In this document: one piece after another, positions 7,295-45,582 of the stretch
How the letters are laid out: each line of letters opens with the position of its first letter
Numbering within the stretch: position 1 is the first letter of the stretch
From: Escherichia phage Jk06
Strand: one strand, 5' to 3'
DNA length: 46,072 bases
Sequence record: DQ121662.1
Notes under the pieces: generated by a model
Database searches by the model: none
What the model was told of the DNA's origin: nothing
What the model saw: only the letters and a program-made list of their open reading frames with translations
Program-made: the position numbers and the translations under genes

Positions 7295-10200
7295 TTAACT
7301 ATAACCTCGCAAGAACTGGTAAGCCGTTCCGCCCTGCTGGAAGGACTGAGTAATCTCTTCCGCGATGATAACCCTGATACCAGATTCTAACTGTTTAGCG
7401 TCATTACCGCCACCACCGCCAAGACCTGTCTGAACGGTAACATTCACTCCACCAACATTAACGTTACTTCCACCAACAAGCCCGCCAGTCGCATAGCCAG
7501 GACCAGCACCAACCACTCCACCATTTGCGTATCCGCGCATTAACTTATAAAGGTTATCAACGCCAATCCTTGAGGTTGCCTCCTTCGTAAAGACGAATTC
7601 ACCTTTATGCACCGTGCCAGCTGGCTCGTACTTACCACCGTTTCCAGTATAACCGCCAGAAGCGAAACCAAATGCGCTACCAATAGAGCCAATTGCACCA
7701 CCACTACCGCCAAAACTGGAGATGGTTGATTCAATCGCCTTAATTAAAAGTAGCTGCGTTGCAATGCGTGCAATCTGCTTCAGAATCGATGCGGTAAACT
7801 CACGGAAGCTAGCTTCTCCAGTAGTTACCAGGTTTGTTATCTGGTCAGTCAATCCGTTAAAGGCACTCATGGCTAGCTCGGAACCAATCTGATTAAAGTT
7901 TGCCAATTCATCAGCCGTCTCAGCAAACGCAGATTTAACGCCAGCCAGCCAGTTACCACGTAATGCATCTTCCTGATTGTAGAAATTCTGACGAGCCTGA
8001 AGTAAAGCCTGGAAGTCAGTGTCATCTACGGAGCCACCTTTAGAAATTTGCTGGGCTTCTAGCGCCGCCAACTCACGCCGCCTTTCCGCTTCGCGCTGAG
8101 ATAATCCTGCTCCAACACTAATTGATGCCGCTTCAGCGTTAATCTGCCGAGTCTTCTTGATGTTGTCATCAAGAAGTTTATTGGCCCTTTCTTGCAGCAC
8201 AATCTGGTCGCCAATCTCAGCCTTCTCGCGAGCGAGTCCTAAGATTTTATCCTGCTGCAACAGTAATGATCGCTGTTGCTTTGTGATGGTTCCGTCTGCA
8301 AGCCTTTCATTAAGGATTGCAAACTTAGCTTCCTCCGCAAAAAGCTGCTTGCGTTCGTTACTGATAACATCACTAATCTGGCGGTGTTCCTGAAGAACCT
8401 TAAGCTGAGCCTGCAGAGCTAGAACGCCAGACTCATAACTTATAGTCAAATCCCTCTCTTCTTTTGCTCCAGATTTTGTCTTTTTACTTCTCTCCTCAAT
8501 TGCTTTAATCTCATCGGCCAAAGCCTTTCTTCTTGATTCTGAATCTCTATCAGAAGTTCCAGTTTGACTTTCTGAACCCTCTCCAACACTCAAGTAACCA
8601 GTCTCGCCCCTGCGAACCCTTGCATACCTATCAGCGATAGATTTAGCTAGCCTTATGTTTTCCTTTTCTATTGCGTCATTATCCTTCCTTAGTTGTTCGG
8701 CTATTCCATTACCAACGCCAGATGCTCCTGGTATCTTTTGTAAAGCCTCTATCCCGCGTATTACGAAATCATTTATTAGCTTGTCGCCAGTGCCAATTAT
8801 CAGTCTTATTTGCTCAATAGTCGCAGCTATAACGTCAGTAAATAGGTTTAGAGCTCCTATAGTCCTGTCACCTATAGCATCCCATGTGTCTGAAACGAAC
8901 TTACGGAAATCGCCCCAAGCCAATTCAAGAGGTGTAAGCGAGCCTTCAATCTGCTTTGTAACTGACTCATTTCTAGCTGCAAATATTTCTAAAGCTGCTG
9001 TTACTGCTGCTGTTTGCCCTTCCGTTTCTTTTAGGTTGTTAACTAGGGTCAGCTGCCCTTCGCTAAGAAAGTTAAATTGCTTATCTAACTCTATCAGCCC
9101 CTTAACTGGATCTTTTGCTATCTTATCAAAGTCAGATATTATTGATTTCCGCAGACCTTGAACTAACAGCTGAAAGGTTAGCAACAGACTTAGCTATTAA
9201 GTTAATCTGACTAACAGTAAGCCTTCCGTTTGATACTAGCGACTGGTAAATGTCACCAATAGAACCTTTTGTTGCCCTTGATGTTTCATTTAGCTGATCA
9301 GCGTAATCCTTGATAGCGGCAACTGATAAAGTCGACGACCTTCCAGTTTCAATTATTGCGTTATTAAGTTGCCTAACCTCAATAAATGAGTCGTAAGCGG
9401 CTTTACCAAGAACAGCTAATGAAGCAATTATCGCGCCACCAAATATAGTTGCAGCACGACCAAACCTTAAGATAGCCTCATCACCAAGAGTCCTAACATC
9501 AGCAAATGAACTTCTCAGCTCTCCTATTGATGATACATAATCTATAACTGCACCTTGCGCAGCTGATAATGTATTTGAAAATCCACCAAATGAATCTGTA
9601 ATCTGCGGTATTTGCTGGGTAAGCACCATAAATAAAGGCATACCGTTAGCAATCGAGCTAGTGATATCATTGATCTGTACAGGAAGGAACCTTAAGGCCT
9701 GATTGTACTGACCTGCCGATATCCCAGCCGCCTGAAACGCCCTACTTTGATTGGCTATAGCGTTAGTATTGTTACTTGATGCCTGTGTTATATCTATCTA
9801 TTATTGGTGCTGCCTGATCGCTAACTCCAAGCTGTGCCGCCCTTAACTTTAAGAACTCATCCCTACTTAATGTCGCTGCATCAGCCTGTGCTTGAAGCGA
9901 CCTAATAAATGATTGTGCTTGCCTCTCAGCGGACTCTTTATTTTTTGCAGCTTCTATAGCCGCCCTACCCTCCTCAGTTAATGCTGACCTAGACCTTATT
10001 AACCTATTTGTTTGCGTTTCTAATGCTTCACCAAGCCTGTAAAACTCAGCCTCTGGAACAACCCCTGCGGAGAAGGCTCTATCAAGAGAACTTGCTGCAT
10101 CTTGAAGTTTTCGCAATTTCGAAGCTGTTGGATCAATTGCCGACTGAAGCGACTGAAAAGCACTTCTCTGCTCAGAAAGATACCTTGCAGTGTCGCGAGC

Positions 10201-10352
10201 CTGATTCTTCGCAACCAGCTCAGCGTTTAACGAACTCGCTAACTCCAGCTGCCGCCTGTTCATTGGCACGTTTAAATTCTTGCAGGGACTTTATGCCCTG
10301 GATCAACCTGGCGAACGTCAACGCCAAGAGTGATACCTGCAAATTCTGCCAT
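7295..10352 (-). CDS. tail tape measure protein, reading frame interrupted at about 9.13-9.19 kb, 9.64-9.78 kb and 10.27 kb
   Basis: Track ORFs 9772-10269, 9132-9641 and 7295-9184 are contiguous, coiled-coil rich with a Gly-rich C-terminal part; ATG at 10352 preceded by GGAGG. Confidence 0.75.
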
Positions 10353-10361
10353 GTAACCTCC

Positions 10362-10388
10362 ATAAAAAAACCTCCACAAAGGGAGGTT
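10362..10388 (-). terminator. hairpin plus U7 run immediately upstream of tape measure RBS
   Basis: AACCTCCCTTTGTGGAGGTT stem-loop followed by TTTTTTT on the minus strand. Confidence 0.5.
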
Positions 10389-19716: not shown

Positions 19717-19760
19717 ATTATAAGCCATCCATGGCGATTATCTTTACCAATTCGTGCTAT
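19717..19760 (-). promoter_or_regulatory. promoter module variant (IR-like ATAGCACGAATTGGTAA, 22 nt, TATAAT)
   Basis: Reverse complement of 19744-19760 matches the repeated IR motif with one change; perfect TATAAT at 19717-19722 on the minus strand. Confidence 0.5.
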
Positions 19761-21323
19761 CTAACGCCAGCTAGCCTCATTAAGCGGGCTCTCGGATCGT
19801 CACTCAAGTTCAATTCACAGTTGATGGCCATTGTTGTCGTATCCACAATGTCATCATGGGGATGAGAATCGTCAGCAGTGAACGCCGAGAACTCGGTTAA
19901 TAGCGAGGTAAGCCATGGCGCAGAGTCAGGCAGAACTACGTTACCAGCTTTAATCTGTGGCAGTGCGCTCATCACCCTGGTTAACTTATCTGTATCTGGA
20001 ACGAAAGGCTCGATAGGAGTTCGCATTACCCGACCCGCCGACTGGATAAGTCCTATTCCAGACGCTTTCTTCTCGATAATAACCTTGCGCAATATACCAT
20101 CTGTCTTACTAGCTGCTCTATGCTTACTCTCAAAGTCCAGAAGAGTTTGCTCAAGTTCAGGTGCTTCCCATTTACCCCTTACCATATCGAGAAGATAAAG
20201 CCTGTTATCTTTGCGCCCCCATAGCTGGAATACTGAGTAGTCGCTATAACTCTTAGTAGTCATGGCAGTATCAGCCGTAATGAATCGGTAGTCATACTTG
20301 GCTGGAGGTCTGTTATTCTCATCGAGGCGAACAACCAATCTACGTTGATCAGGTTTCCACCCAGAGCTACTGGAGATTGTTGGTACTGGCTAAGGAATGT
20401 GTACGGATCTGAGTCCCACATTGCCATCAAGTCATGCACAGATTCCTTCTGCGGGAAGTAGCTGTAATACTTAACACCATCTCGCTCGACGTACTCGGAT
20501 GAAAGCACGTCCTTCTCGAACTGCTCACGAATCCAGTCAGGGAGTTCATTCACATATTCTTCAGTGACCAGCGCCGGTATCTTCACTACATCAAAGTCGA
20601 TACCCATACCACCAGAAGTCATGAACCACGTTGAATCCTGAGTATGAAGCCTTTGCTGAATTGACAGAATTGGCGTAGCTTTACCTTTAACGCTACTCGC
20701 CCTACGTGAGCGAATGGTATTTTTAAGTAAAACGTGGACAGCTTCTCGCCTTACCTTGCTGAGCATATCGTCTGGCTTGTCTGGGTCATCAAGCATCAAG
20801 CAACCGCTATAGGTTTCAGTAATATAACCGCCACGAGCGCCGGTAATCTGACCGCCAATTGCCTTAGATATCGCTTCGAACCTAACCTTTCCACTCTCGT
20901 CAAGAACCTGAATCTCGTCATCCTTGCACGTGCCGAACTTACAGGGCCATAGTTCCTGAAACTCACTGACTTTATAAGGTCGCGAACACGCTTAGAGTTG
21001 CGCTTCACCAGACTGTCAGAGAATGAGAGGCTCAGATTTCGCACCTTCTTTAGCTTAAGCATTGAATATACAGGGAAGTGTATTGAAGTAATCTCGGTCT
21101 TCCCGGCCCCAGGAGCCACGTTAATGATGGTATCCCTACGCTCGCCACTAATAACCTCGTCAATTATTCGGCAAAGGTACTTGTGATGCCAGTTAGGGAT
21201 GTATCGCTCTCCCTGGCTTAGCTGAAACCACACGCGAAGGAATGCCTCGAAGCTGTGAGTGGACAGCGCTTTAACTGCCAGCTTTTCGGCTGGCGTCATT
21301 TCTTCCCAAACTAATGTCTTCAT
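19757..21323 (-). CDS. terminase large subunit, frame interrupted twice (about 20260-20340 and 20796)
   Basis: N-terminal fragment has Walker A VAPGAGKTE; C-terminal fragment has a nuclease-type acidic motif; three overlapping track ORFs 20796-21323, 20260-20799, 19757-20338. Confidence 0.85.
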
Positions 21324-21836
21324 AGTTTATCCATTACAGAAGCCAGAGCGGCCTTCATCGCTTCTTCATCGTTCACTACGGCATTTGAAGCGTTATTGAT
21401 GTTAACCTCTTGCGGCTTATCAATACCAAGGTCTTTGCCAATAAGTCCAGGGTTGACGATGTTGTTAACACCCAACTGGTACTTCTGTTCAAAGATAACT
21501 GAGTCGACGAACTCCATAACTTCATCGAATCCTGGTGATGATCGCCATTTGCTAATAGCATTATGACCAACGCCGCAGAAAAGCTGGAATCCAGGTTATC
21601 GTAAATACCCTCGGCTTGTGAACAAGGTTTTCCGTTACGACACCCTGAAAGCTTGCTGTCTCGATAGCTTTAATTGCCTGCTCTTCAGCCCAGCTGAAAT
21701 ACCTTACAGCCATGTCGAATACCTGCTCGGGAGTGTATCTGTGGTTAATCTTAAGATTGGCAATGTCGCCATACTTCTTATTGTAAAGCTCCTTGAAGTT
21801 ACCAATCTTCTGGTGAATTTTTTTCTCTTCTGACAT
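21320..21836 (-). CDS. terminase small subunit (putative), frame interrupted near 21520-21570
   Basis: Track ORFs 21561-21836 and 21320-21517 immediately upstream of the large terminase gene; position-based call. Confidence 0.45.
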
Positions 21837-22137: not shown

Positions 22138-22213
22138 TGGTGTTCCGCACTGGACTCGAACCAGTAACTGAGACTTAGGAGGTCTCTGCGTTATCCTGTT
22201 ACGCCAGCAGAAC
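22138..22213 (-). tRNA. tRNA-Arg (anticodon CCT), 76 nt with encoded CCA
   Basis: Hand-folded cloverleaf: 7 bp acceptor stem with one G-U pair, D-arm GCGT/ACGC, anticodon stem GAGAC/GTCTC with loop CTCCTAA, T-arm ACTGG/CCAGT with loop TTCGAGT, discriminator A, CCA. Confidence 0.75.
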
Positions 22214-24673: not shown

Positions 24674-24692
24674 TTTAGCAATTTGTGCTATA
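24674..24692 (-). promoter_or_regulatory. inverted-repeat promoter/operator motif copy
   Basis: TTTAGCAATTTGTGCTATA on the plus strand, i.e. AATAGCAC-N4-TGCTAA oriented with minus-strand transcription. Confidence 0.45.
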
Positions 24693-25235
24693 TTCGCCAT
24701 TCAGGAGAGTTTTCGCTTTCCGGTAGAACTGTATGGCCTTCTCCACCTCATCGGCATCATAGCCATGGATTGTTGTTTGCGTTGGCACGTAGTTTGAGCG
24801 TGGCGCGTCGGATCGGTACTGACTGCACCAGTTTTGCACGTCGTCCTTATCCATCCCAACCAGGGCCGGATGAACATAAATCTTATCGCCAATGAGGCAA
24901 ACAATTCCCGCCTCCTGTAGTTCTGGGATGATGTTATTTGTCAGGTCATGCATAATCCCTTCGCGCCCGACGAATGGCTGGACCTTTCGGATTGCCTCGT
25001 ATAGAGATCGAATGCCAACCACTCCATTCCAGCCCTGGCGGCTAATCCTGCTCACTACGACACCGTATTTGTAGCTCAACTTGACGCACAGCATCTCTTC
25101 GGCGCTGGGCCAGAAATTGAATGATTGGCGGTATCCATTAGTATTGATTGCCACACGAAGTGGCGGCAGGTTATCTTGCCTGGCGACTTCCATCACCTGG
25201 TCATCAGTTAACTTATCTTCGTCGAAATCAAACAT
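24675..25235 (-). CDS. short paralogue of the 28217-29808 gene (shares its N-terminal and C-terminal domains, lacks the central P-loop region)
   Basis: N-terminus MFDFDEDKLTDDQVMEVARQDNLPPLRVAINTNGYRQS matches MFDFNDDKLTVEQVMAVAAQDGLPPLRVAINANGYRQS; segment GVVGIRSLYEAIRKV...CLIGDKIYVHP matches GVVGLRSLYEAARKV...CLIGDKVYINP. Confidence 0.5.
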   Translation of the reverse strand: MFDFDEDKLTDDQVMEVARQDNLPPLRVAINTNGYRQSFNFWPSAEEMLCVKLSYKYGVVVSRISRQGWNGVVGIRSLYEAIRKVQPFVGREGIMHDLTNNIIPELQEAGIVCLIGDKIYVHPALVGMDKDDVQNWCSQYRSDAPRSNYVPTQTTIHGYDADEVEKAIQFYRKAKTLLNGEYSTNC

Positions 25236-28216: not shown

Positions 28217-29808
28217 ATGATAATGTTTGATTTTAATGATGACAAATTGACTGTTGAACAAGTAATGGCTGTTGCCGCTCAGGATGGATTACCTCCTTTA
28301 CGTGTTGCTATTAATGCGAACGGTTATCGCCAGAGCGCATCATTCTGGAAAGCTCCGGTTGAGATTGATTCTACTGGCGACAAGTATCCTGTTATCTCGC
28401 TTGGTAACGACTATGATGTAGTTGGCAAACTATCAAGCAACATTGCTCGTTCTGTTCAGTTTCCTGAATCATCTGCTTATATGCACTTCCTTGGTTGCAT
28501 CTCGGCAGCTATGTTAGGTCGCTTTACGGTTGAGTATCACGGAACTCAACAACCAACATCACTGTATGTAGTGACCAGCCAGCCTCCATCAACTGGTAAA
28601 TCTGCCATTAACTCGCTGTCTCTGGCTCCAATGATTGCAGAGACTGAGCGACTAAACGATCTGCGTAAGCGTGACCGTAAAAAGATTATGGCCAAGCTGT
28701 CGGCTCTGGCTAAAGAAATGAAGCAGGAGAAGTCGCCTTCTGAGATGGCTGGTTTGTTTGAGGAGAAGGAGGAGCTGGAAGATAAGCTCGAGAAACTTTG
28801 CGACATCGTATTCCCTGTATCTGATACTACTCCTGAAGGTCTGGCACGCATTAACCATCGTCAGGGTAGCTTCGCTGTCATCTCGGATGAGGCGACGAGC
28901 GTCAACTCACTGCTGGGCATGACCTATGGTGATGGAACAAAGAAAACAAACAGCGAACTGGTACTTAAGGCCTGGGATGCTGGTAACGTATCTATCGCGC
29001 GTGCGAACGCAGAGAACAACATGAGCTTTATTGCTATGGGGTGTATTTCTGTAATTGCGCAGGATGAAACAATAGTCGCAATCATGAATGCTGGTGCTCG
29101 CGGTATTGGTGTATCCGAACGTTTCTTGCTTGTGCGTGAAAAGTCATTCCTTGGTGAGCGTGTTTTCGTCGATGATAATGGCGAGTCAACATATGAGCCG
29201 ATTGACGGAGCGTGAAGGGCTGATTACTTCCGTCTTTGTTCATGAAATTATGAGTGAGCAAGATGTTAAGTTGACTATTAGTAACTCAGCAATGAAGCAC
29301 CTTAACCGTGCTCGACAGGAAAATGGAGCCACACCTTGCAGATGGCGGTAAGTATTCACACACAATGCTGCGCGGCGCGTTAGGTAAAATGGATAAACAG
29401 GTAATTCGCATTGCTGCAGTTCTTCACACTATCCGTAACTGGTTTAACCCCAATGGCGGTAGTCCGCAGAAGTCCAGGGAGATTGAACTGGAAACCATGC
29501 AAGAGGCTTTGTTGATGTTTGGAGAACTTAGTAAGACTTACTTATCCTCAGCTAACGCAGCTGGTCATGCTGGCGATAACGCTGAGATGAACAAGTTAAT
29601 TGATATCCTTATCAAGCAAGGCAAGAACAGTAAAGGAGTTGTGGGTTTGCGTTCACTTTATGAAGCTGCGCGTAAGGTTCGACCTTTCGAGTCACAGGCT
29701 GGTGTTATGGCTAAAATTAAAGACCACTTACTGCCGATGCTTGATGAGAAAAACTATACCTGCCTGATTGGTGACAAGGTATATATCAATCCACGGCTGC
29801 TGGGGTAA
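28217..29808 (+). CDS. P-loop NTPase-like protein (about 530 aa), reading frame interrupted between about 29215 and 29310; long paralogue of 24675-25235
   Basis: Track ORFs 28217-29215, 29088-29351 and 29308-29808 are contiguous; Walker A-like SQPPSTGKSA; N- and C-terminal segments match the short paralogue. Confidence 0.55.
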
Positions 29809-31923: not shown

Positions 31924-32000
31924 TCTATTTCCTATCTCGTTGTCGATGAAACAAATATAGCGCCTTTCGGCGCTATAGTCTTTAGCAAAAAGTGCTATTT
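31924..32000 (-). promoter_or_regulatory. early promoter module (IR, hairpin, TATATT, CATCGACAACGAG leader)
   Basis: IR TTTAGCAAAAAGTGCTATTT at 31981-32000 (reverse orientation); hairpin AGCGCCTTTCGGCGCT. Confidence 0.5.
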
Positions 32001-32548
32001 ACTACTTCCATTAATTTATTCAAAGAACCATCTATATCACCACTATCTAGTTTCAAATCAACCTCAATCGCACCAGTATTGTAAAGGTATGACCTGGAAT
32101 CACCTGAGAAATCAAAGCCATCCCTATGAAGCCTTACAATCATAACATCAACGCCATTAGATAATAGTGGCTCAATTTCTGAACGCAAAACCACCGTCAG
32201 AAGAAACATAGAATCCATCAACAATCTTGCTGTACAGCCTCTTTCCGAACACGTCATTCCCAAACACTGGCTTCATTACAACTTCGCTAATCCATATCAT
32301 AACTCTCTCGGGGTTTTTCCACCAAGAAATGACTGATGGGACTCCTTGAATGACCTGTCGTCATAATTTTCAATAAATTTATCAAAATCATCTTTTGATA
32401 AAACACCTCTTGCAACATCAAATATTGGTGATTTGAATGATAATTTTTCATCAAAAAAACCAGATGTAACAAGAATATCAGCTAGCGTGTCCTTGCCGCA
32501 ACCCGCTGGACCATTAAGTACGACTAATTTCTTCATTTTATTCCCCAT
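31982..32548 (-). CDS. P-loop nucleotide kinase (dNMP kinase-like), frame interrupted near 32263-32300
   Basis: Walker A LNGPAGCGKDT in ORF 32297-32548; ORF 31982-32263 continues downstream in another frame. Confidence 0.5.
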
Positions 32549-33011
32549 GTGATTCGCAGTCTTTTGGTAAATTTTCGTAGCTTCTTACCTGCATAACACA
32601 GTAACCATTACTCCTTAAGTGTCTTATTACGTTTGGGTTATCCTCAAAAACTATACATTCATCAACTCCGTCTGTATTTTTCTCTAGCCACTCAAGTTTA
32701 ATATCAAAATCCTTTCTGTTATCTTCTCTATTTCTCATAGAGATTTCGCTGTACATTACATTATTTCTTTTAAGCCAGGATACTGTTTCATTCTTACACT
32801 CATCGCTCCTAGATGTGAGCAATACTACACGCTCACCTTTCATATAAAGACTATTCATCATATTTATGATTTGAGTCTTTGGCTCGTCATTCACACATGC
32901 AGAGTTGTAATTCCTCCAAGATTCTGTTAAGTGAAGATTATCTTTAGGCAGTAAATGCTGCCTTTTCTCATTTAAAGATATCGTACCATCTATATCAAAA
33001 ACATAAACCAT
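32538..33011 (-). CDS. HAD-superfamily phosphatase (nucleotidase / polynucleotide-phosphatase-like)
   Basis: N-terminal motif VFDIDGTI (DxDGT) and a later acidic motif; 157 aa. Confidence 0.55.
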   Translation of the reverse strand: MVYVFDIDGTISLNEKRQHLLPKDNLHLTESWRNYNSACVNDEPKTQIINMMNSLYMKGERVVLLTSRSDECKNETVSWLKRNNVMYSEISMRNREDNRKDFDIKLEWLEKNTDGVDECIVFEDNPNVIRHLRSNGYCVMQVRSYENLPKDCESHGE

Positions 33012-33013
33012 TC

Positions 33014-34140
33014 TTACATCCCCGGGCGGTAAATGAATCGACCAATCTCACCAAATTCCTTGTGGTATACGATTACCGCCGCCTGACGATAGCTTCTCCA
33101 TCCACCTCGAGCTGCATAAGCATCTTTACTCGCAAGCGCCGGGTGAACCTCGTCAATACCAAGCGTGCACTCACTTAACGTTGCATGATGGAAGTGCCCC
33201 GAATGACAGTAAACAAACTCACATTCGCCAAAATCTTTACGGAAATCTGTAGCCATTGCTGCCAGTCGACCTTCTGCTTTCTTCATTGTGTGACCATGCG
33301 TGTATCCAAGCAGTGTGGAGCCATAACGAGTCTTGTGCATAATTGCAGGGCTAACATCAACATGAACACGTGGCTCATTATCATAGAATGCAGCCATTGC
33401 AGCACGCAGCCAAATCATCGATGCCTGGTCGTGGTTGCCTTCAATAACCTGAATCTCAACCTCTTTATGTTTCATAAGCATTTTAGTTACTGTTGCTCGC
33501 AGTGATCGAATGGCAACATACACCAACTTAGCAAATCGACTATCCTGATCAAGTACGTGCTTACTGCCGGTGTAACAGCATCAAGACCATCAGAGTGAAG
33601 GAAGTCGCCACCAATCAGTAGCACTGCTTTCTCGGAATTTGGAGCCTTGCTGATTGAGTAATCAAAGTATGAGTTCATCAATTTTTCAGCTGTTGCCGTG
33701 TCGTAGTTCTCGCCAGCTTCGTGAGAGTGGGCCATCATACCAATATGAATGTCAAATACAGGGTAAAGAGTTAATGTATCATCAAAGTTAACATTTTCAT
33801 TTTTAACTAGCTCGGCCTTAGGAAGTTCTGAGCAAAATGCTTCGCGTGCCTTAGTAATAATCTCTTCAAGGCGTTCATTATCAACGCTAGTCTTAACCCA
33901 ACGAATCTTCTCGTTACCTTCTGCATCAATCATGGTTGAAGTGCCTTTAACCATGTATCCATCCGGAACTAGCTTCTTTATGCCTTCGTTTCCGTGGCCT
34001 TCGCCAGATTTTGACAGCTTGCTCCGGCGCAGTTCTACGTTACGAATGTTCATGCCGTACTTCTCTGCGATTGCTTTGTTAGTCATACCGTTTGCCAGTT
34101 CTTCTTTAAGTTGTTCTTTAGTGATTTTAGCGATAGCCAT
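33014..34140 (-). CDS. metallophosphoesterase (calcineurin-like) with N-terminal HTH-like segment, frame interrupted near 33490-33530; true start at ATG 34140
   Basis: Motifs FDIHIG, GDFLHSDG, GNHD and GHTH across track ORFs 33487-34263 and 33014-33526; the first 41 codons of the track ORF lie in the promoter. Confidence 0.6.
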
Positions 34141-34224
34141 TCTATATTTTCCTATTAGCAGGTTATGAAGTACATGATTATAAAGGTTACTGGCACTGCC
34201 AGCAATGGTAGTAATGTTTTCATC

Positions 34225-34298
34225 TGAGCCGCCTCTCGTTTCGATGAACACACTATAAGCCATCCCTGGCGATATGTTTTAACAAAAAGTGCTATTTA
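34225..34298 (-). promoter_or_regulatory. early promoter module (IR variant TTAACA, TATAGT, CATCGAAACGAGAGG leader)
   Basis: IR at 34277-34298 on the plus strand (reverse orientation); a 20-codon hydrophobic mini-ORF lies in the leader. Confidence 0.5.
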
Positions 34299-36232: not shown

Positions 36233-38178
36233 TTAGAACTCCTTATTAGCAATATTATCGCCACCTTTAGCGGTCTTGCGGTGAGTTACCCTCTTAGGAG
36301 CATGGATGTACTGCGAATACTCCATAATCTTGCGAGCATTGCGATATGCAGCCATATATCGCTTAGCGTTCATGTCGACTACGTGACCTTTAATTCCATT
36401 GTTCAACCAGAGTGTTTTACATACTCGATGGTCAGACTCTACGAAGAAAACCTCATGAGCTTTAAATGTCCCACCCATGCCATCATCAAGGATGTAGTTG
36501 TAGATGATTCCTGATTGGTTCTTTGTTAGCCCAACCTTAAAGTCAACAACATCAAACCAGTCGTTCTTGCGGTAATGTTTGCCGCTTAACTTGAGATTTG
36601 GATCAAGCAAAGTGCAATCGCAACCCCTACAAATCTTAGCTGCAACGTCATTCTGAACTCCGCAGCCTTTAACGATAACCTTTCCGGTTCGTGGGTCTTT
36701 CTGGTCTTCACATGTGCGACTAACCCAGAAATATTCGCAGCGATTATTATTCTCATCAATATGCATGCAACGTCGAGCAAAGAAGCTGTTCTCTGTTCCG
36801 CATACTGGACACTGCTTAGTCTCCTTGCCATTATCTTTCGTAGCTGATATTGAGCCTGCTCAAGAATTGGATTGAAGTACAATGATGCCATAGAGTCCAT
36901 CGTTCCTGCGAAGTCCAGTACCAAATGGTCATTCTTGACCATTCCTTTATCTTCATGGAGCTTCTTAAGCTTACGCATTCCTCGACCAAGTAGCTGAACC
37001 AGGAGCGTAAGGCTACCAATCTTACGCAGAATAACGCTTGTATCCCATGTAGGCACATTTACGCCAGTGGTTAGCGCCTGAACCTGAAAGCAATATTTAA
37101 TCTCCCCGCTAAAGCACTTATCAAGCAACTCCTTGCGCTGCTTCTCGCCAGTCTTTCCAGTTATAATGCAGAACTTTTCACCTTCAGGAAGGTAACTTGC
37201 GGCTTCGTGGCAATGGCGCTCACCTGCGCATGTTACCAGAACTCCATTCCTGTCTTTCGCGGCAAGCCATACTTTCTTCATTATCTCCGCTGTCATTGTT
37301 CCAGATGCCTGAATCTTTTTATCCATGGCTTCAAGCTGGGCTTTAGTGTAATCCTGAACACCATCTTCAGATGATGCATCAAACTCTGACAGGTCGTAAC
37401 CAACGCCATCAGTAGCACCAAAGTTTGTCGGAACCACGGAACCGAACTCGACCAGGTAGTTTGTATCGATATTTGTGACCGTCTCACGCCAAAATCCCAA
37501 CTCCTTTTTATTTTCAACAACTATTGGCGTAGTTCCACGGAAAGGAGAACCAGTCAGTCCAAAGATACGAAGATTCTTGCCATACTTAGCACGGCAGCGC
37601 TCCATTAAAGTCAGTATGATTACCGTATACTGGCTACGTCCCTTATCTGATGCCTGTTGCGCAGTCTCATTGTTATCTAGAGCCTCAGCCACATCCTGGT
37701 CATCAACATGGTGACACTCATCAATAGCAACTACCGCAGGGCAGAAATCGCCAAGTGACCTCTCAAGCCCGCCAACTACTGTACCCTCAGAGCCAACCAC
37801 CACAGGGAAATAAGATGATTTTATTCCAAGCCCAGAGCAATAGATGGAGTTAGGAACCCCGTAATCAGAAATCTCAGAAGCATTCTGGCTAACCAGCTCT
37901 GCCTGACGAGCAAGAACAAGCATAGGCAAGCCAAGCTCAGAGCAACGCTTAGCAACCATACCAAAAACCAGAGTCTTACCAGCAGAAACTGAAGCCATTG
38001 CGATAAATGGATGCTCATAGCGACTAATGCGCTTTGCAATCTCATTGTACATAACACACTGATAGCTATACGGAACCATACCGTTAGAAGAGGTGAATTT
38101 AGTTTGAATCTCTTTAATCTTATCTTCGCCCAATTCTTCAATCTGTTTTTGTATTGTTTTCAATCGGTTTTCCATAAT
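36233..38178 (-). CDS. SF2 DNA helicase with C-terminal zinc-ribbon region, frame interrupted near 36800-36840; start taken at MENRLKTIQ
   Basis: Motif I SVSAGKT, motif II DECHH; Cys-rich C-terminal continuation CPVCGTEN...CRGCDC in ORF 36233-36766; the first 16 track codons overlap a promoter module. Confidence 0.75.
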
Positions 38179-42025: not shown

Positions 42026-42508
42026 TTGGAGTTAATAGTAATGCTCTTACTGCAGTATAACGTGATGGCATCAGGAGAACACAGTGTCTCATTGTTAATA
42101 TCAGCATCAGGTGAAACAAGAGTTTTATCAGGTGTGTTGCCAGTCTCATCAAGAATGGTCAACGGTGGTACTTACAATATTGCTCTTGGTTTTGATGTAT
42201 CTGGTAAGGTTTGGTGGAGCATCTTAAACCTGAATACTGGATTTAGAGTTAGAAGGTCATTTGATTCTCAGTATATAGATATTGATGTCAGACCTATACT
42301 AACAACAGCTGGTAACTATGTAACCATGTATTCAGGTCAAGGCGCTGGTGATGTAGCTTGCTCTGGATATGGCTTTGGTGTTTACGTTGGCAGCTATTCA
42401 GATGAGTCTGATTATTGCGCTTCAAGATACTATTCGCTTAAAGGTGGTGTTGATTTGACAAAACAATCAGTATTTTTGAGTTTGAATGGTGATGTAACGT
42501 CACAATAA
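42026..42508 (+). CDS. hypothetical protein downstream of tail fibre gene (possible fibre-associated protein)
   Basis: 160 aa ORF, Gly/Ser/Tyr-rich; ends at a bidirectional terminator. Confidence 0.4.
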   Translation: MELIVMLLLQYNVMASGEHSVSLLISASGETRVLSGVLPVSSRMVNGGTYNIALGFDVSGKVWWSILNLNTGFRVRRSFDSQYIDIDVRPILTTAGNYVTMYSGQGAGDVACSGYGFGVYVGSYSDESDYCASRYYSLKGGVDLTKQSVFLSLNGDVTSQ

Positions 42509-43009: not shown

Positions 43010-43658
43010 TTAGAACTGCTCGATTGATTGTGATTCTACTACTTCATTAGTTGCGTTTGCAACTTTTTTAGCGACTTCCTTTGGCTTAGCTGGGTTGAAG
43101 CCACTTGCGGAAGCCATTTTGATCTCTGCTTGTTTATCTATTATCGCTTTCTCTACTATACCCCACGTTGCCGTGTCAGCTTGTGATTTGCATGATTTGT
43201 AGATTTCGATAAGCTCTTCTCGAGTTTCTGCCTTCTCAATATCGCGCTTCCAGTCCTTGACGCTCTTAACTGACCATCTGCGCATCATCGTCAGACTGAC
43301 TAATTCCCAAAGCCGCCGCTAGTGAGTAACGCCGAGCGTATGTAAATGCAGATCCTACTCCTTGCGGGTCTTTCTTAACGATTGGCATAATCATGAAGAA
43401 GCTAACCCACTCGCCAGAAACGTGATAGAGAGTCGTCTCTACGTTAAGATTGTCAGCAGTTGATGTTTCTAACATGCTCTGCATAATCATTAAGTCGTTA
43501 TCATCAAGTGCTGGGATTACAGCCTCCAGCATGGAATCAAGTGTTGCGTATCTATTCTTTAGGTGACTGTTCTGCTTGTCTCTTGCTGCCTTCGCAAATC
43601 CTGTGCGAGCTTTAAATAGTGCCTGTAAAACTGTTTTGTTACTCTCTGAAGTCTTCAT
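43010..43658 (-). CDS. putative single-strand annealing protein (ERF-like), two overlapping ORFs, possibly one interrupted gene
   Basis: ORF 43266-43658 has a [14 protein letters not shown]-type motif; ORF 43010-43288 overlaps by 23 nt; promoter module upstream. Confidence 0.4.
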
Positions 43659-43670
43659 TTCTATCTCTCT

Positions 43671-43733
43671 TTGTTGTCGATGAGGTAACTATACCCCATC
43701 GATTTAATACCGTTTTAGCTATTCGTGCTATCT
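43671..43733 (-). promoter_or_regulatory. early promoter module (IR, TATAGT, CATCGACAACAAAG leader)
   Basis: IR at 43714-43733, TATAGT on the minus strand at 43688-43693, leader at 43671-43682. Confidence 0.55.
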
Positions 43734-43845
43734 TCGTACTTCTTCATCTCATACTCAGGAACTTGCAGTTCCATCTCTGTTTCGCCAAATCCGTAACCAG
43801 GCCAAATATCAAGTTTCTTGCATTGCTTGTATGTGGATAGGGCGC

Positions 43846-44682
43846 TCATGTATTGCAATCTACCAACCTTAAGTGCTCTTTTGTTATCGTGTAGCACATT
43901 GGAAGGAATGGGCTTTTCTTTTCCTGGCAAAGAAGCTGAACAACAACTCGACGCTTCTCATTAAAGGCGCGAACAAACAAATCATGCTGAAGCGCCATTT
44001 TTAGCAAATAACCATGCTTGAAGGCCAATCTCCCAAATCCAGATGGAGATGCGTCGCTAGTCGTCTTGTAGTCACGGATATAAACTACATCATCAACGAC
44101 ATCGACATGGTCAAGACGAACCTTAACGCCGCACTCGTTAATCTCACCGAAGATTGATAACTCTCGCTGAGCGGTTTTACTGTTCACTATCGCATTGTAT
44201 GCAGGAATGCCACACAGCACCTCTCGCATCGCATGTACTGTGTCAAAGTCTTTAGCTGATACAATCTCGCGACCGTTCGCTTTAACCTCGATAGAGCGCT
44301 GAATATCCCACCATACGTTAAGTGATTCACCGGCTCAGCGCCAGAATCTCCATTAATTCTGGATAATCCTTACCAGATGTTCCAGCAATACCCATCGACT
44401 TCAACCGAGTTGCCAAAGCAGTCTGCTAGTAATCAGATCCTCAAACTCTTCTTGCGCTGGCTGGCGATAGTAAGTCGCATCGAATACAGAGTTTTCAAGA
44501 ATAACCGTGTGGGCTAATGTACCGAACTTTAACGCCTTATTGCTATCATCATGCTCTGCAAACTTATAAGCAGCGGGGCAAGTTGAGAAGATGTGAGCCA
44601 GACCAGAGCCAGACACATGGTCTGACTCCTTGTGGTAGGCTTCGTTGGTTAACTCGTCGCTAGTGTAAACCTTGAAGCTCAT
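43846..44682 (-). CDS. PD-(D/E)xK family exonuclease, reading frame interrupted at least twice
   Basis: Fragments 44401-44682, 43846-44229 and 43715-43930; motif VRLDHVDVVDDVVYIRDYKTT; adjacent to the annealing protein and SSB genes. Confidence 0.5.
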
Positions 44683-45018: not shown

Positions 45019-45582
45019 TTAACTTCTGGCAAAGAATTTCACACTGAGATTGATATGAGTAACCATCTCAAGAGCATCAAAGAGCCTGCTAGATTCAAAT
45101 TTAACCTTATAAAGCTCATCGTGAATCTCTTCACCATTTGAAGCCTTATCAATATACTTATAAATAATCTTCTCTAGCTTGTAAACCTCATCTTCGGCGC
45201 GATTGCGTGCCGATAGCTCCTTGTTGGTTTGCTGCTTCTCTTTTAATACCAGATCGTAAGATACCATCTTGGCCATGTGCTCTTTGAGTAACTTGTTCTC
45301 CCGCTCAAGGTGAAGCCAGCGGTCAATGATTCTGGCAGCAATTTCCTGGCTATAACCAGCCATCAAAATCATCGTTTCCCTGAATTTTAGGTTATACATT
45401 GGTAAATCCTTGTTCTGGCTTGATTTGTAGGAGGATACAAATTTGTATTCTCCTCCATCACCAAACTGCCTATTAAGCATATCCCTAATATCCCTTAGTA
45501 CTATAAAGTGTTCCTTTCCAGTTAATTCAGCAATCTCAAGGCTACTCATGGTTACGTTTTCATCAATATTCATCAGATTCAT
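45019..45582 (-). CDS. Rha-family phage regulatory protein (antirepressor-like)
   Basis: N-terminal motif SSLEIAELTGKEHFIVLRDIRDML typical of Rha regulators; coiled-coil C-terminal half. Confidence 0.6.
   Translation of the reverse strand: MNLMNIDENVTMSSLEIAELTGKEHFIVLRDIRDMLNRQFGDGGEYKFVSSYKSSQNKDLPMYNLKFRETMILMAGYSQEIAARIIDRWLHLERENKLLKEHMAKMVSYDLVLKEKQQTNKELSARNRAEDEVYKLEKIIYKYIDKASNGEEIHDELYKVKFESSRLFDALEMVTHINLSVKFFARS

Follow-up and report, generated by a model that had tools for sequence, protein, structure and literature searches.

The sequence of Escherichia phage Jk06 (record DQ121662.1), analysed here as one stretch of 46,072 nucleotides that we refer to as the window, contains on its minus strand three consecutive genes for a metallophosphoesterase (MPE), a HAD phosphatase and a P-loop kinase. 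We consider it likely that the HAD phosphatase and the kinase, a deoxynucleoside monophosphate (dNMP) kinase (DNK), constitute a cassette acting on the nucleotide pool, that the MPE stems from a separate core gene and that the frame breaks found in two of the three genes are sequencing errors. An earlier note, made from the sequence alone, had described the trio as one phosphotransfer unit that could serve nucleotide salvage or, alternatively, the repair of nuclease-cleaved tRNA as a counter-defence. The gene content, the minus strand, the order, the boundaries and the motifs reported there all stand. Not all of the genes are intact in the window, however: a single-base indel breaks the MPE gene and two more break the kinase gene, which the note had missed.

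Identity and linkage of the kinase and the phosphatase

All analyses were performed with repaired translations or with near-identical database proteins, i.e., P0001 for the kinase (99% identity) and P0148 for the MPE (94% identity). The kinase gene (31982..32536, minus strand) encodes 184 amino acids once repaired. The protein contains the P-loop motif LNGPAGCGKDT, in which G14, K15 and T17 do not vary among 54 sequences. Among the PHROGs, it falls into phrog_139, 'deoxynucleoside monophosphate kinase' (E 5.3e-42), a family that also takes in T4 gp1 (E 1.8e-65) and R1DNK, the gp58 protein of phage Rao1 (E 5.7e-44). The window kinase is 58% identical to R1DNK over 182/184 amino acids, and the two genes have equal positions in their loci. 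Pfam and NCBIfam yielded nothing specific for the kinase. Single-sequence and profile hidden Markov model (HMM) searches against the PDB returned generic P-loop matches only, and a fold comparison was therefore needed. The structure predicted from P0001 is nearest to a solved dNMP kinase, and neither fold nor profile comparison identified the protein as a polynucleotide kinase of the T4 Pnkp kinase-domain or Trl1/Clp1 type. Despite a weak sequence link, its motifs are collinear with those of T4 gp1.

R1DNK phosphorylates dAMP, dGMP, dCMP and dTMP, and its K15A variant is inactive (bioRxiv 10.1101/2024.12.20.629578). Deletion of its gene lowers dATP during infection, and the defence mounted by KomABC is triggered by this enzyme (bioRxiv 10.1101/2024.12.20.629578). 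Because this 58%-identical orthologue is biochemically characterised, we assign the window kinase by sequence comparison to the dNMP kinases and not to the polynucleotide kinases, in agreement with the earlier description of the protein as dNMP-kinase-like. The assignment rests on the fold, on PHROG membership and on the Rao1 orthologue. Membership of the Pfam DNMK family is not claimed, in view of a partial hhalign alignment and a negative Pfam scan, both of which are considered further below.

The HAD gene (32538..33011, minus strand) is intact and encodes a stand-alone phosphatase of 157 amino acids of the Pnkp-phosphatase/T5 Dmp type. The DxDGT motif by which it had initially been recognized is present as DIDGT at residues 6-10. 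In Pfam, the protein matches PF25109 (HAD_PNKP) over residues 3-143 with 68.7 bits, well above the cut-off of 27.6. Its best PHROG is phrog_415 (175 bits, E 2.9e-51), compared with 84 bits for phrog_505, the bifunctional Pnkp family. T5 Dmp, which itself has no Pfam match, is a full-length member of phrog_415 (E 3.6e-57). When a profile of the HAD homologues was compared with the PDB, it retrieved the phosphatase domains of two end-healing enzymes, Pnkp1 at E 9e-11 and T4 Pnkp at E 2e-5 and 0.0016. The next-best HAD protein reached only E 0.11. Six residues, D6, D8, R17, R68, D101 and D124, are invariant in the family alignment (A5). In the alignment to 1ltq and 5uj0 they coincide with T4 Pnkp D165, D167, R176, R213, D254 and D278, which we take to be essential for 3'-phosphatase activity and which were reportedly identified by mutagenesis in the Shuman laboratory.

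The relationship between the window HAD protein and T5 Dmp is remote at the sequence level. An hhalign comparison of the HAD family with T5 Dmp gave 77% probability and E 2e-5, covering 44 N-terminal columns only. The two have the block DxDGTxxxxxHR...NxACxxD in common, and a MAFFT alignment shows the motifs that follow to be collinear as well. A tblastn search with T5 Dmp found T5-like phages only and no cross-match to the HAD subgroup. Family membership is compatible with three kinds of substrate, namely 5'-dNMPs, 3'-phosphorylated nucleotides and polynucleotide ends. Note that the label 'polynucleotide kinase' attached to phrog_415 is misleading, since the family comprises stand-alone phosphatases without a kinase domain, the T5 5'-deoxynucleotidase (T5 locus L092:124-858) included. 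The label is nevertheless widespread and has passed into many phage annotations, including those of some T5 Dmp orthologues.

The HAD and kinase genes are also linked in other phages. Among 80 kinase loci from IMG/VR, which are phylogenetically non-independent, 73 have a HAD homologue no more than 2.2 kb upstream and in the same orientation, and in 29 of these 73 it is immediately adjacent. The MPE gene, on the other hand, occurs within 4 kb in only 28 of the 80 loci. An HMM search of 1.8 billion representative proteins yielded 4,614 kinase relatives, most of them stand-alone proteins of ~190 amino acids. Two are HAD_PNKP-kinase fusions (P0287 and P0299, 403 and 461 amino acids) with a common GPELHG linker motif, the former encoded on a 60.7-kb phage-like contig (locus L093:4001-5212). 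Another (P0313, 373 amino acids) is a kinase-dUTPase fusion. In a T4-like Krischvirus, a stand-alone HAD homologue (41% identical) directly follows nrdA-nrdB, and a further, separate Pnkp-type match exists in this phage. The kinase homologue of Chaseviridae is flanked by a ligase fragment and a dUTPase gene. A HAD-kinase pair in that family was considered and rejected: the ORF that precedes the kinase homologue in Escherichia phage vB_EcoM_DE15 (154 amino acids, L009:3041-3505), annotated as 'putative DNA ligase', encodes only the OB-fold domain of a ligase and no HAD protein. The ligase gene there may be split or mis-called.

Given the linkage, the fusions and the presence of the MPE gene alone in most Rogunaviruses, we conclude that HAD and kinase genes form the functional unit that is conserved and that this pair is associated with nucleotide metabolism. 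The earlier proposal of a three-gene unit is thus borne out for this pair but not for the MPE as its partner. The literature is consistent with such an association. In Drexlerviridae, the genes next after that for the exonuclease are commonly annotated as 'polynucleotide kinase' and 'dNMP kinase', and they have been proposed to aid nucleotide supply (PMC13164509, 2026). Phages T1 and TLS degrade host DNA and reuse its nucleotides (PMC11447400). A literature search combining Drexlerviridae with 'phosphoesterase' gave descriptive genome papers only, a paper on retron Eco2 mentions PNK merely as a reagent, and a PADLOC scan of all three proteins produced no matches.

The metallophosphoesterase gene, the inserted cassette and the frame breaks

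The MPE gene (33014..34140, minus strand) encodes ~375 amino acids and corresponds to the 'DNA repair exonuclease' of Drexlerviridae, the designation also carried by its best PHROG (phrog_704, E 1.5e-151). The motifs DxH, GDxxH, GNH[DE], H and GHxH are all present and invariant in 32 homologues. In alignment A4 the invariant residues are D130, H132, D179, H182, N236, H237, D238, H282, H284, H313, H316 and H318, and all twelve are found in the repaired window protein. The fold test likewise returned the metallophosphoesterase fold. The earlier designation as a calcineurin-like MPE is therefore upheld by motifs and fold, with the score for PF00149 (Metallophos) lying below threshold (14.4 bits versus a cut-off of 21.5, E 0.051). 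The same initial reading had included an N-terminal helix-turn-helix (HTH)-like segment. An AlphaFold prediction indeed places three helices, with moderate confidence, in the first ~45 residues, but the matches of this part to GerE/LuxR-type HTH domains are weak (E ~0.06-0.1) and hardly establish its identity as an HTH. Sequence comparison with the PDB gave no match to the catalytic domain, just a weak one to a LuxR-type HTH at E ~0.1. A Rad50/SbcC ATPase partner was found neither among the window ORFs (open reading frames) nor in the annotation of the related phage e4/1c. Homology of the MPE to T5 A1, the host-DNA degradation protein, was considered and dropped, as the comparison gave a probability of 1% and aligned only the region of the NHD...WL motif. 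From its motifs and fold, the MPE is probably a DNA-directed nuclease or phosphodiesterase.

The start of the MPE gene deserves a comment. The ORF extends 41 codons upstream to an in-frame ATG at 34263 (window 34141-34263, minus strand). In e4/1c the protein is annotated in this long form with 416 amino acids, whereas hundreds of homologues have 375-383 amino acids and start with MAIAKIT, so that the longer version probably reflects a mistaken choice of start codon.

When the region was compared with phage genomes by megablast, matches were confined to Drexlerviridae, with the Rogunavirus Escherichia phage e4/1c at the top (93.5% identity, 65% of the query). Local gene order is the same as in e4/1c, namely a helicase gene, a YdbL-like gene, the spanin-endolysin-holin genes, three small ORFs, the 'DNA repair exonuclease' gene and more small early genes. 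On these sequence comparisons, the window represents a Rogunavirus-like phage of the family Drexlerviridae, and the trio belongs to the block of early/replication genes of this T1-like (Rogunavirus-type) phage. In blastn of the window against e4/1c, the segment 31942..33013 has no counterpart. It comprises the HAD gene, the kinase gene and a terminator-like, GC-rich hairpin with a T-run, which a terminator scan located at 31956..31977 on the minus strand, directly 3' of the kinase stop codon. Neither the HAD nor the kinase gene is present in the annotations of e4/1c and UDF157lw, and most Rogunaviruses, e4/1c included, have the MPE gene without the two. By this comparison, HAD and kinase genes are an accessory cassette inserted downstream of the MPE gene, which is a separate core gene of Drexlerviridae. 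The genes are tightly packed, with 2 nucleotides between the MPE stop and the HAD start and 1 nucleotide between the HAD stop and the kinase start. The HAD and kinase genes are probably translationally coupled.

In the window, both the MPE and the kinase gene are frame-broken, and the HAD gene is the sole intact ORF of the trio. The MPE gene is split into two ORFs by a single missing A at ~33564 (GCAAGT read as GCAGT). The kinase gene is in three pieces, as one T is missing at ~32300 (TTT read as TT) and one base is superfluous at ~32184; the frame is shifted for ~40 codons between the two indels and then regained. Taken at face value, one MPE frameshift and two kinase frameshifts could mean that both genes are true pseudogenes in a decaying module in which the HAD gene alone is still functional. 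We regard this as extremely improbable. Similar frame switches became apparent when e4/1c proteins were compared with the window by tblastn, and they affect terS, terL, the genes for the tape measure and a tail fibre, both helicase genes, Erf and exoVIII, several of which (terS, terL, tape measure, tail fibre, helicases) no viable phage can dispense with. Essential genes match in two to four frames each, among them terS/terL (19760-21836), the tape measure gene with four frames (7298-10379) and a helicase gene (28217-29805), and further multi-frame matches lie at 36236-38175, 42044-42505 and 43013-44682. In addition, the two kinase indels together restore the original frame, and the repaired proteins retain all residues that are invariant in their families. 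Finally, a Logan contig (L006, 46.5 kb) that is 97% identical to the window carries intact HAD and kinase genes and an MPE gene that is unbroken up to the contig end, beyond which its first ~60 codons fall. The differences between contig and window are single-base indels, mostly in or beside short base runs. As essential genes across the window have similar indels and the 97%-identical contig is intact, the three frame breaks are best read as sequencing or assembly errors, and the genes as functional in the real phage. The interpretation as pseudogenes was dropped because the frameshifts occur genome-wide and affect essential genes. Single-base indel errors are thus frequent across the window, and any reading at the level of ORFs needs correction.

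Role of the phosphatase-kinase pair

By homology to the characterised enzyme, the DNK would convert dNMPs derived from degraded host DNA to deoxynucleoside diphosphates, from which a nucleoside diphosphate kinase of the host would then form the triphosphates for phage replication. The HAD phosphatase is predicted to act on deoxynucleotides of the same pool. Two options are conceivable: it may remove 3'-phosphates and thus provide 5'-dNMP substrates, or it may hydrolyse 5'-dNMPs and thereby trim or balance the pool. The product of the separate MPE gene would probably act on DNA, as its motifs and fold suggest. Nucleotide salvage had been one of the two roles initially offered for the trio, and it is now supported by the occurrence of the HAD protein in one PHROG with T5 Dmp, by homologues residing beside ribonucleotide reductase and dUTPase genes and by the kinase-dUTPase fusion.

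Several observations do not fit easily with an enzyme pair for nucleotide supply. A 5'-dNMP phosphatase and a dNMP kinase working together would run a futile cycle unless their specificities differ. The Rao1 dnk deletion comes without measurable fitness cost in the laboratory (bioRxiv 10.1101/2024.12.20.629578). PF21448 (DNMK) does not match P0001, P0088 or P0120 at E values up to 1, while T4 gp1 scores 358 bits, and the hhalign alignment of the kinase with T4 gp1 covers just 37 N-terminal residues with a probability of 49%. The conservation of the Pnkp-essential positions in the HAD protein would furthermore be compatible with a polynucleotide 3'-end as substrate.

This last point leads to the second role put forward originally, end healing. 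Spelled out, the trio's phosphatase and kinase would act as a split Pnkp: the HAD protein would remove 3'-phosphates or 2',3'-cyclic phosphates and the P-loop protein would phosphorylate 5'-OH ends, so that cleaved tRNA or DNA is repaired as a counter-defence. The phosphatase gives this idea some substance, as it passes Pfam HAD_PNKP, its profile matches the phosphatase domain of an RNA-repair enzyme, Pnkp1 (E 9e-11), as well as that of T4 Pnkp (E 2e-5), and the residues aligned with the six T4 Pnkp positions are invariant. Tight phosphatase-kinase linkage and the fusions also resemble the two-domain logic of Pnkp. The kinase, however, is of the wrong kind, its 58%-identical orthologue R1DNK being a proven dNMP kinase, and the PHROG of the HAD protein itself includes T5 Dmp, a proven 5'-deoxynucleotidase. 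Neighbours in other phages are genes of nucleotide metabolism. Furthermore, the window contains no ligase gene, whether for RNA or for DNA. All of its ORFs of at least 110 amino acids correspond either to e4/1c genes or to PHROGs other than ligases, and the segments unmatched to e4/1c DNA are at most ~1.1 kb long, with ORFs that belong to the HAD-kinase cassette or are non-ligase genes; the earlier statement that no ligase gene is evident was thus correct. The sole link to end healing is the homology of the HAD protein to the Pnkp phosphatase domain, with T5 Dmp in the same PHROG. We therefore do not uphold end healing or tRNA repair, and consider it very unlikely.

Another alternative concerns immune evasion. 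A Dmp-like HAD phosphatase might be retained beside the kinase mainly to lower dAMP and so keep the phage's own DNK from fuelling the dITP signalling of a Kongming-type defence. Phage DNKs, including the Rao1 orthologue, do trigger Kongming, T5 Dmp blocks it via dAMP depletion, and Dmps co-occur with DNKs (bioRxiv 10.1101/2024.12.20.629578). In line with this, the window HAD protein is found in phrog_415 together with T5 Dmp, and HAD genes are linked or fused to DNK genes. Rao1 itself, however, argues against it: this phage has a homologous HAD protein (gp57, 43% identity) encoded directly upstream of R1DNK and is still fully Kongming-sensitive, and its protection requires T5 Dmp in trans (bioRxiv 10.1101/2024.12.20.629578). 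Added to this are the remoteness of the HAD-T5 Dmp relationship and the restriction of tblastn matches to T5-like phages. On balance, such a function of the window HAD protein is unlikely, though somewhat less so than end healing.

A broader and still speculative proposal, to which we give a modest chance, treats HAD and DNK as a two-step unit. The phosphatase would either strip 3'-phosphates from DNA ends or 3'-phosphorylated deoxynucleotides and so feed the kinase, which would channel the products to deoxynucleoside diphosphates, or limit the dAMP at the disposal of its own kinase and thereby blunt an immunity that senses DNK activity, such as Kongming. If true, either version would explain why a seemingly antagonistic phosphatase and kinase are kept together across hundreds of phages. 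Returning to the nucleotide-pool cassette, which we prefer, a practical consequence is that carriage of this kinase predicts sensitivity to Kongming-type defence, which is relevant to the choice of therapeutic phages.

Further features of the window and comparison with known systems

Three other features came to our attention in the window. ARAGORN predicts a tRNA-Arg with anticodon CCT at 22138-22213 (minus strand). An ORF for 186 amino acids (24675-25235, minus strand) is homologous to e4/1c gene 0064 and shows similarity to two parts of the DUF3987 helicase encoded at 28217-29808 (plus strand), namely its N-terminal 48 residues and a portion of its C-terminal region. Judged by this resemblance, it may be a truncated helicase paralogue without the ATPase core. 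The third is an anti-repressor-like protein of the Ant/Rha type (187 amino acids, 45019-45582, minus strand; phrog_8235, E 6.5e-90), whose gene lies in a segment without e4/1c counterpart and is unexpected in a family regarded as strictly virulent.

Several well-studied enzymes resemble individual members of the trio. With the Mre11/SbcD nucleases and other calcineurin-like phosphodiesterases, the window MPE has the metal-binding motifs and the fold in common, but the Rad50/SbcC partner by which Mre11/SbcD complexes are defined was not found in the window. T4 Pnkp has a phosphatase domain homologous to the window HAD protein, and the homology extends to the DxDGT nucleophile and to Arg, Asp and Lys residues at aligned positions. 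In contrast to the T4 pathway of Pnkp and RNA ligase, the window has no Pnk-type kinase domain and no ligase, and the adjacent kinase is a dNMP kinase. T4 gp1 (PDB 1DEK, PF21448) is 16% identical to the window kinase, which is ~57 residues shorter. According to a record note, neither dAMP nor dCMP is a substrate of T4 gp1, in contrast to R1DNK, which accepts all four dNMPs.

Phage T5 has members of both enzyme families, Dmp and DNK, with T5 Dmp and the window HAD protein both belonging to phrog_415. T5 DNK and R1DNK have been placed in one DNK family, and dmp and dnk co-occur in phage genomes (bioRxiv 10.1101/2024.12.20.629578). The arrangement differs, however. In T5 a long distance separates the two genes and their expression differs in timing, with dmp residing on the first-step-transfer DNA and dnk entering later, whereas the window genes are adjacent and probably co-translated. 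T5 Dmp is also larger (244 amino acids with extra insertions) than the window HAD protein (157 amino acids).

The closest counterparts are found in Rao1 and in the family of the phage itself. Rao1 gp56-gp57-gp58 have the same order, strand relation and sizes as the trio in the window, with identities of 82% for the MPE, 58% for the kinase and 43% for the HAD protein. A matching block of 'DNA repair exonuclease - polynucleotide kinase - dNMP kinase' is present in Drexlerviridae such as SU57, ACG-M12, AN_ECEAS, T1 and TLS. In Rao1 and these Drexlerviridae, as in the window, the trio lies just upstream of small ORFs and the holin-endolysin-spanin cassette. The trio is thus an ordinary one: it is a divergent version of a gene block of T1-like coliphages that is known and has been annotated before. 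Its discovery value is small, given that the block is annotated in many T1-like genomes and treated in a comparative paper of 2026 and that the kinase orthologue has been characterised. What sets the window apart from the Rao1-type blocks is its Rogunavirus-like backbone, most of whose kin are without the HAD-kinase cassette, and the sequencing indels. The cassette itself represents a divergent lineage with ~58-62% protein identity to the nearest annotated copies.

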